Below, piece after piece: positions 21,001 through 24,000 of a stretch of DNA of 64,000 nucleotides. Location of the stretch: NCBI RefSeq assembly GCF_024223415.1, contig NZ_CP100500.1; one strand, given 5' to 3'. Source of the stretch: Escherichia coli (lineage in GTDB: Bacteria > Pseudomonadota > Gammaproteobacteria > Enterobacterales > Enterobacteriaceae). Every line of letters starts with the position of its first letter. Within the stretch, counting starts at the first letter, position 1. Position numbers: made by a program.

Positions 21001-24000
21001 CATGAGACATCAGAACGGTAAAGGTTTGCATTACCCCTGCGGAGAGGTTGATTTCATTACCCGGAATGACCATCGCAATAGACAAACCACCAACAGAGCT
21101 TAAGCAGATTGCCGCCACCATCAGCAGTAACATAGCCAGTGGATAGTCGCGCCCTGGGTTGCTCATTTCATTGACGTGGGTTGCGGATGCTTCTACGCCC
21201 ATATAACTCAAAATGAAGGCAACAAATACTACCAGGGTGCCCACTTTAGAGAAGTCAGGGAAGAAGGTCTTCGAATCCATTTCGATAGCAACGGGGGCAC
21301 CGGAGTGCAGATAAATAGCCGCTAATGCGATCAAAATAAATGCAGGTAACAGGATACCGGCGAAGAAGCCAACTTTAGCAATGCGCGCCGTGTATTTCGT
21401 GCCACCAAACTGCGTTAATGCCAGCGCCCAAAGAATGATGAGTGCTGCAATAGTTTTGGTAATAGGGTCTTCATTCAGCGCTGGCCATTTCAGGATGTAG
21501 GAGAGTGCCCCTAACACGAAATAGAGCATCGGAATAAAACCAATGGCGATTTGCAGATAGCCAAATGAGATCGCTGCAAATCCCCATCTCGGCCCCAGAG
21601 TATTTGATACCCAGGCGAAGACACCACCTTCTTCCCAGCCGTCGACGGTGGCCATTTCCGCAGCACAAAGTCCCACGGGAATAAACCATAAAATCCCGCC
21701 TAATAGCAGGAAGAAGACTAATGAAAAGCCCGATGTTGCGAAGGTAGGGTATTCATAAACAGCCATTACCATCGATGCCGTTATGGCAAAAAAGCCGAGT
21801 AATGTGAGCTGCTTAGCTTTACCTGTCTGTACTGATGTAGCCATATTATCCCCCTAAAACGGTATTCCTGTCGGAACCGCACCTGTTTTGTTCTGAAGCG
21901 TATTCAGAACAATATTTTCCGTTGCTAATGCCAGTGAACAGACTTTGGAAATTGTCCCGAAACGGGTTCGTTTCGGGACACCGTTACCGTTAAACGTTAT
22001 CAGGTATGTTTAAAGCTGTTCTGTTGGGCAATACCCTGCAGTTTCGGGTGATCACTGAGATATTTCAGGGAGGCTTTGTAGTCTTCCAGCAACAGTTCAG
22101 CAAAGTCCATTTCGAAGCCGCGACGACACATAATGCGCATCACCACGATGTCGGTGGCTTCACCGCCGAGAGTGAAGGCCGGAACCTGCCAGCCGCGCAG
22201 ACGCAGACGTTCAGAGAGGTCGTACAGGGTGTATCCCGGATCTTCACCCTCTTTCAGTTTGAAGCAAACCGCCGGAATGCCTTCGTCCGGGCGACCGGTA
22301 CAGATGAACTCATACGGCCCCAGTTTGGCGATTTCATCCGCCAGATAAGCGGCAACCTGGTAAGAGGCGTTCTGTACTTTGGTGTAGCCTTCACGACCGA
22401 GGCGCAGGAATTCATAGTACTGTGCAATTACCTGACCCGCCGGGCGGGAGAAGTTGATGGCGAAAGTACCAATCTGACCACCGAGGTAGTCAACGTTGAA
22501 CACCAGTTCCTGCGGCAGCGCTTCTTCATCACGCCAGATAACCCAGCCGCAGCCCAGCGGAGCCAGACCGAATTTATGGCCTGAAGCACTGATCGATTTC
22601 ACACGCGGCAGGCGGAAGTCCCAGACGATATCCGGGGCGACGAACGGTGCCAGGAAGCCACCGCTGGCGGCGTCGATGTGCATGTCGATGTCGATACCGG
22701 TGTCGGCCTGGAATTTATCCAGCGCATCGTGCAGCGGTTGCGGGAACTCATAGTTACCGGTGTAGGTCACGCCGAAAGTCGGCACCACGCTGATGGTATT
22801 TTCGTCGCAGGCTTCAATCATGCGTTTCGGATCCATAAACAACTGACCGGGGCGCATAGGGATCTCACGCAGCTCCACATCCCAGTAGCGGGCGAATTTA
22901 TGCCAGCAGATTTGCACCGGACCGCACACCAGGTTTGGTTTATCCGTTGGTTTGCCTGCAGCTTCCATACGCTTGCGCCAACGCCATTTCATCGCCATCC
23001 CGCCGAGCATACAGGCCTCGGAAGAACCAATGGTGTTGGTGCCAACGGCCTGACCATTTTTCGGCGCAGGCGCATGCCACAGATCGGCAACCATATTTAC
23101 GCAACGCAGGTCGATGGCTGCGGATTGCGGATATTCTTCTTTGTCGATCCAGTTTTTGTTAATGGATAAATCCATCAACTTGTGGACGTTTTCGTCGTCC
23201 CAGGTCTGGCAGAAAGTGGCCAGGTTCTGACGAGCGTTGCCATCAAGATATAATTCATCATTGATAATCTGAAATGCGACATCGTCGCGCATTTCGTGCA
23301 GCGGAAAACGTTTTGATTCTGCGATAGTGGAAATAGACTTCGCACCAAAACGTGAATCGAGTAGTTCCGACCTTAAATCCGTTACTTGCTTCTTATCCAT
23401 TTTAAACTCCTTAAAATGATTGGATCGCATTAAAAAAGTAGGATTTATCGATAAAGTAAGCAAGTGCAAAGGACTCGTGTTTAAATAACAAAATCCTAAT
23501 GTTATTTATGGTGAGATATTGCGTGAATAATATTTTTTCATTAAAAAACAATATAGTAGGGAGATCTTGGGTTGTAGTAAGGTGTTTTATGCTGTTATTT
23601 TTATGCGTATTCTGTGCCTCCTGAATTATCACGTAAAAATCAGACCTTAAAATATCACTATTAGTACGCGGTTATTATTTTGAACGCATTTATAAAATTA
23701 TTACATAAAAATAGCGAATATTGCTAAAATCCCCGCCAACGATGTGTTGACGGGGCTGTTATTATTTTGGCAATAATACTCCGGTATAAGTATTTACCGG
23801 ATGAGAAAGATATTGTTTAACGGCAGTGTTAACATTCTCTACCGTCATTTGTTTCAACAATTGCTCCTGCTCAGCCCATGCTGCAGGATCGTCATATTGA
23901 ATAAGACTATTTACAATAGTGTTCGCTAATTGTTGAACGCTACGCTGTTGGATATCGAGGCTGCGCTGAACGTTTTGCTGGTATTCGTTCAGTTCTTGCT

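Follow-up and report, generated by a model that had tools for sequence, protein, structure and literature searches.

Conserved gadBC operon of a non-K-12 Escherichia coli encoding GadB with the common D384E and the rare G204S substitution

The gadBC operon and the GAD box are textbook components of acid resistance in Escherichia coli. In the scheme that we propose for the locus studied here, GadB would act as a PLP-dependent glutamate decarboxylase converting glutamate to GABA with consumption of a proton, GadC, encoded just downstream, would exchange the GABA for glutamate, and gadBC would be transcribed from a conserved promoter having a GAD box (23480–23499) expected to be bound by the GadE/RcsB activator. 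In the published description (PMC2887963), the 20-bp box is recognised by a heterodimer of GadE and RcsB; its centre is placed 63 bp upstream of the transcription starts of gadA and gadBC, and 16 bp separate it from the −35 element downstream. We here compare these known components with the gadBC operon found in a 64-kb stretch of E. coli DNA (the window, meaning the whole of the stretch that was analyzed). Both the operon and its exact protein allele are already known and recorded in public databases. The reading that we hold with high confidence is that the window carries the gadBC operon of a non-K-12 E. coli, with a GadB-D384E haplotype that has recently acquired G204S, a conserved GAD-box promoter, and substitutions that are neutral or nearly so. 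The two substitutions differ in kind, D384E being common and G204S being rare, apparently recent and located at a conserved glycine.

The window was found to be collinear with positions 1.548–1.612 Mb of MG1655, at about 98.2–98.6% identity and with several indels, and its closest relatives were KV7, NCTC10444 and similar strains, at ~99.96%. This agreed with an earlier reading of the DNA made from the sequence alone, which had suggested a non-MG1655 background (overall identity to MG1655 ~98.5%). The minus-strand open reading frame (ORF) covers 22000–23469, with the gadB coding start being the ATG at 23400 and the stop lying at 22000, hence a coding sequence for glutamate decarboxylase beta at 22000–23400 (minus strand) of 466 amino acids plus stop. 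The interval of 22000–23499 given for gadB in the sequence-only reading was well placed, with the stop codon of gadB at one end and the outer edge of the GAD box at the other. The encoded protein was identical to MG1655 GadB and to PDB 1pmm at 464 of 466 residues over the full length (residues 1–466), and contained all five of the gadB-type residues K3, Q5, V6, L9 and S22 in its N-terminus. At the nucleotide level, the positions discriminating gadA from gadB between nt 6 and nt 117 were all gadB-type (18 of 18), as were nt 1377 and nt 1395. The co-oriented downstream partner is gadC, encoding the glutamate:GABA antiporter (20309–21844, minus strand; a 511-aa ORF matching the K-12 annotation), and the upstream neighbour that marks the gadB locus is pqqL (23762–26545, minus strand; an M16 peptidase ORF of 927–931 aa). 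The resulting gene order, digH-gadC-gadB-pqqL-yddB, is that of the MG1655 annotation. A gadA locus would be expected to have gadX on its downstream side and to face the ccp side upstream; the window shows the opposite, with gadC downstream and pqqL upstream. Because of the N-terminal residues, the gadB-type 5′ and 3′ nucleotides, and the presence of pqqL and gadC, not gadX, as neighbours, the gene is assigned as gadB and not gadA.

The Pyridoxal_deC domain (PF00282), typical of group II PLP-dependent decarboxylases, was present, according to precomputed annotation, in the representative of the 90% cluster (P0002), in all of the listed homologues and in the corresponding gene of two of the compared loci (L004 and L005). 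As the protein is identical to the K-12 enzyme everywhere except at residues 204 and 384, it is predicted to decarboxylate glutamate and to do so with an acidic pH optimum. The neighbouring gadC differs from that of K-12 at 17 nucleotides, with one residue changed in the C-terminal tail of the antiporter (codon 485, Q485K).

The sequence-only reading had also noted an intact GAD box upstream of gadB, and we indeed found the box, TTAGGATTTTGTTATTTAAA, as an exact 20-bp match at 23480–23499 on the minus strand, identical to that of K-12. It was the single exact match within the window, with 0.02 matches expected by chance as estimated from shuffles with three mismatches allowed. The known promoter of gadB, with its probable −10 element TACTTT, was missed by a generic scan for sigma-70 promoters, and the hexamers were instead positioned using the published geometry (PMC2887963). 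This gave a probable −35 hexamer, TTGCTT, at 23458–23463, 16 bp downstream of the GAD box, and a probable −10 hexamer, TACTTT, at 23435–23440, both on the minus strand and identical to K-12. A Shine–Dalgarno sequence, AAGGAG, could be read at 23407–23412 (minus strand), 6 nt upstream of the ATG, again identical to K-12. With its exact box and the TTGCTT at a distance of 16 bp, the layout matches the published GAD-box promoter, for which binding of GadE/RcsB is predicted. No difference from K-12 was seen in the 120 nt preceding the start codon of gadB, a stretch containing both the GAD box and the core promoter.

The more distal part of the region between pqqL and gadB (23495–23640) showed a different picture, with 17 of the 361 intergenic positions differing from K-12, clustered ~95–235 nt upstream of the gadB ATG. 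Relative to the otherwise near-identical KV7, this patch has two further differences (23564 and 23573), and the stretch upstream of the GAD box looks locally variable. On the other side of the gene, the 155-nt spacer between gadB and gadC was 100% identical to K-12 and folded as RNA into two strong hairpins (MFE −50.8 kcal/mol, z = −3.7). One of these, directly after the gadB stop codon at 21953–21980 (minus strand), has a perfect 12-bp stem with a 4-nt loop and may serve as a partial terminator or as an mRNA stabiliser; the terminator scan did not flag it, because no T-run follows the hairpin.

When the window gadB was aligned with that of MG1655 (NC_000913, 1570645–1572045), 23 nucleotide differences were found over 1401 nt, of which 21 were synonymous and two changed an amino acid. 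The divergence of 1.6% equals the average of the window in relation to K-12 (~1.5%), and the ratio of 2 non-synonymous to 21 synonymous changes fits purifying selection. At codon 204 (22789–22791, minus strand) the window has AGC (Ser) in place of the K-12 GGC (Gly), through G>A at nt 610 with the SNP at 22791, thereby turning ENTIGVVP into ENTISVVP. At codon 384 (22249–22251, minus strand) it has GAG (Glu) in place of GAT (Asp), through T>G at nt 1152 with the SNP at 22249, thereby turning KLKDGEDPG into KLKEGEDPG. The sequence-only reading had suspected that at least two residues differed from K-12 GadB and had proposed alignment with MG1655 as the check, with identity as the outcome that would speak against it; the alignment showed that the proteins are not identical, and that both of the residues differ, in precisely the two quoted motifs ENTISVVP and KLKEGEDPG, with no others. 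Comparison with PDB 1pmm (GadB) again gave only G204S and D384E, whereas PDB 1xey (GadA) gave these two together with the N-terminal residues that separate GadA from GadB.

The D384E substitution was found to be frequent. An exact 53-mer around it matched 679 of 5,428 records in complete E. coli genomes, in either gadA or gadB, and at the protein level both GadB-D384E and GadA-D384E (the latter being the O157:H7 GadA, DCEA_ECO57) were found on at least 1000 contigs each. Position 384 is itself variable, with E in 37, D in 21, K in 10, A in seven and P in six of 87 full-length homologues of 72–86% identity, in addition to other residues, and when the protein is aligned with the solved homologue 7x4y it falls in a loop that contains gaps. 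Because the 53-mer is common, at least 1000 contigs carry the change in each paralogue and position 384 belongs to a variable, gapped loop, D384E is on this evidence a common and trivial polymorphism, with Glu being the commonest residue among homologues, and it probably reflects an ancestral-like state.

The G204S substitution, in contrast, was rare. Among 5,426 complete genomes of E. coli, the exact 38-mer having S204 occurred in a single one (strain CFIAFB20190157, NZ_CM143728.1), and the exact window protein was found on five public contigs in a collection of ~15 billion proteins, with the accessions HFU7852015.1, HFV8389912.1, HIA7488152.1 and SRA07413.1. Two assemblies, GCA_053732715.1 and GCA_900482235.1, carry the GadB protein of the window and match its DNA at 99.97% identity over 21.4 and 11.4 kb, respectively, with the gadB coding sequence of GCA_053732715.1 being identical to that of the window. 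KV7, the closest complete genome, showed 17 differences over 48.3 kb, of which the G204S SNP was the sole one within the gadB coding sequence. As this is the only coding change in gadB in relation to KV7, G204S would be a single recent point mutation, and the window allele thus looks like the widespread GadB-D384E haplotype (WP_000358933.1, as in KV7) having received one recent G>A transition.

Some of the other carriers of S204 deserve a description of their own. In CFIAFB20190157 (19398–20798 of NZ_CM143728.1), S204 is found on a K-12-like gadB haplotype having D384, with nt 642C and nt 699C in common with K-12 gadA, in a region only 98.3% identical to the window. The GadA-G204S protein (WP_238921376.1) was found on four contigs, and S204 on a K-12-like GadB on one contig. 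For the CFIAFB20190157 lineage these observations hint at an independent origin of S204, possibly spread by conversion between gadA and gadB. The locus in GCA_900482235.1 (UDHK01000007.1, 6856–21401) codes for a GadB protein identical to that of the window and has pqqL upstream, as on the gadB side; its downstream genes have Pfam domains that fit gadX, gadW, mdtF, mdtE, gadE, hdeD and hdeA, as on the gadA side, and the 3′ nucleotides 1377 and 1395 of its gene are gadA-type. The locus may have been joined across the gadA/gadB repeat during assembly, or it may be a genuine recombinant.

Could the differences from K-12 gadB have been brought in by gene conversion from the paralogue gadA, and not by mutation of gadB itself? 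For pathogenic E. coli, conversion between gadA and gadB is on record (Bergholz et al. 2007, Mol Biol Evol 24:2323, as cited in PMC9909107), D384E occurs in gadA and gadB alleles alike across strains, and at six of the 23 nucleotides that set it apart from K-12 gadB the window gene agrees with K-12 gadA. These points are outweighed with regards to G204S, since the 38-mer with S204 is present in neither paralogue of the other complete genomes, including KV7 and NCTC10444, with one unrelated strain as the exception, since the gadB of KV7 is a single base from that of the window, and since a GadA having both G204S and D384E was sought in the public protein collection and not found. We thus consider conversion an improbable source of the differences, and G204S is best read as a point mutation, the simpler of the two readings because the close relatives lack the 38-mer in both paralogues, KV7 differs by one base and no GadA combines both changes. 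For D384E, conversion somewhere in its history is plausible; the gadA of the same genome lies outside the window. As for sequencing or assembly error, G204S is a single base and very rare, as an error might be, but the identical gadB coding sequence in GCA_053732715.1 and the identical protein in GCA_900482235.1 and in the further NCBI protein accessions leave next to no probability for this explanation, which we regard as ruled out by the independent assemblies.

The remaining alternative, which we find doubtful although better placed than the two preceding ones, is that G204S is functionally significant, with a measurable change in the activity, stability or pH switch of GadB. The glycine that is replaced is invariant and belongs to a conserved strand of the PLP-binding domain, and its loss could be tolerated through the redundant GadA enzyme. 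Position 204 was Gly in 87 of 87 full-length homologues of 72–86% identity, located inside a 14-residue motif ending at T212 that is invariant among the same 87 sequences, and neutrality is therefore not guaranteed; the rarity of the allele, at one of 5,426 complete genomes and five contigs among ~15 billion proteins, points in the same direction. The solved GAD in PDB 7x4y (~50% identity), on the other hand, has Cys at the aligned position (DENTICVVP), so that small side chains should fit there, with Cys being close to Ser in size. Moreover, the allele has been kept in several independently sequenced isolates, S204 is seen also in a second gadB background, a K-12-like one, and in GadA on four contigs, which suggests that it arises and survives repeatedly, and every residue of the protein except 384 is otherwise that of the K-12 enzyme. 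It is accordingly rather unlikely, though conceivable, that G204S is a natural hypomorphic or altered-function allele of GadB confined to a small lineage of E. coli with KV7 and NCTC10444 as relatives. We instead infer little or no functional effect for either substitution, because D384E is conservative and placed in a variable loop, and because G204S exchanges one small residue for another at a position occupied by Cys in a distant solved homologue. The gadB of the window is ordinary strain variation, with one common polymorphism and one rare, lineage-specific change. The allele can be used as a lineage marker, and if G204S were to alter the behaviour of the enzyme it would provide a minor natural structure–function data point for GadB.

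Elsewhere in the window, some further differences from the reference genomes were observed. Within 47310–49453 (junction near 48300), a 3,278-bp deletion lies inside the autotransporter gene of the ECSE_1600 family (yneO), leaving two broken, overlapping ORFs at 47310–48158 and 48101–49453 on the minus strand; the deletion is seen relative to K-12 and KV7 alike, with KV7 staying collinear with K-12 beyond the junction. The region of 41357–44715 belongs to an intact set of fimbrial genes, encoding an usher (40210–42861), a chaperone (42903–43622) and a FimA-like subunit (43974–44585), where K-12 has only a truncated ydeT and the yneL pseudogene, and where the annotation of KV7 shows an intact operon. 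Finally, 498 bp between dgcF and yneG (63233–63730) are absent from K-12. As these 498 bp extend the dgcF ORF to 472 aa (62247–63665, minus strand), compared with 315 aa in K-12, this suggests that the K-12 dgcF is truncated at its 5′ end.

With regards to the known systems, the closest well-described counterpart is the GadB of E. coli K-12 MG1655 (b1493, NP_416010.1; PDB 1pmm), with which the window shares the length of 466 aa, the neighbouring genes, the GAD box, the core promoter and the gadB-gadC spacer, and from which it differs by G204S, D384E, the 21 synonymous changes and the 17 altered positions in the distal stretch between pqqL and gadB. The paralogue GadA of E. coli (b3517; PDB 1xey) is ~98% identical, with the same chemistry and the same regulation through a GAD box, but has Q3, L5, L6, F9 and A22 and adjoins gadX, whereas the window gene is GadB-type at these residues and adjoins gadC. 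Closest of all is the GadB-D384E allele (WP_000358933.1, as in KV7; UniProt A0A1M2U364), the probable immediate parent haplotype, having the same gadB nucleotides except for one base, the window being set apart by a single G>A transition (nt 610) that gives G204S.
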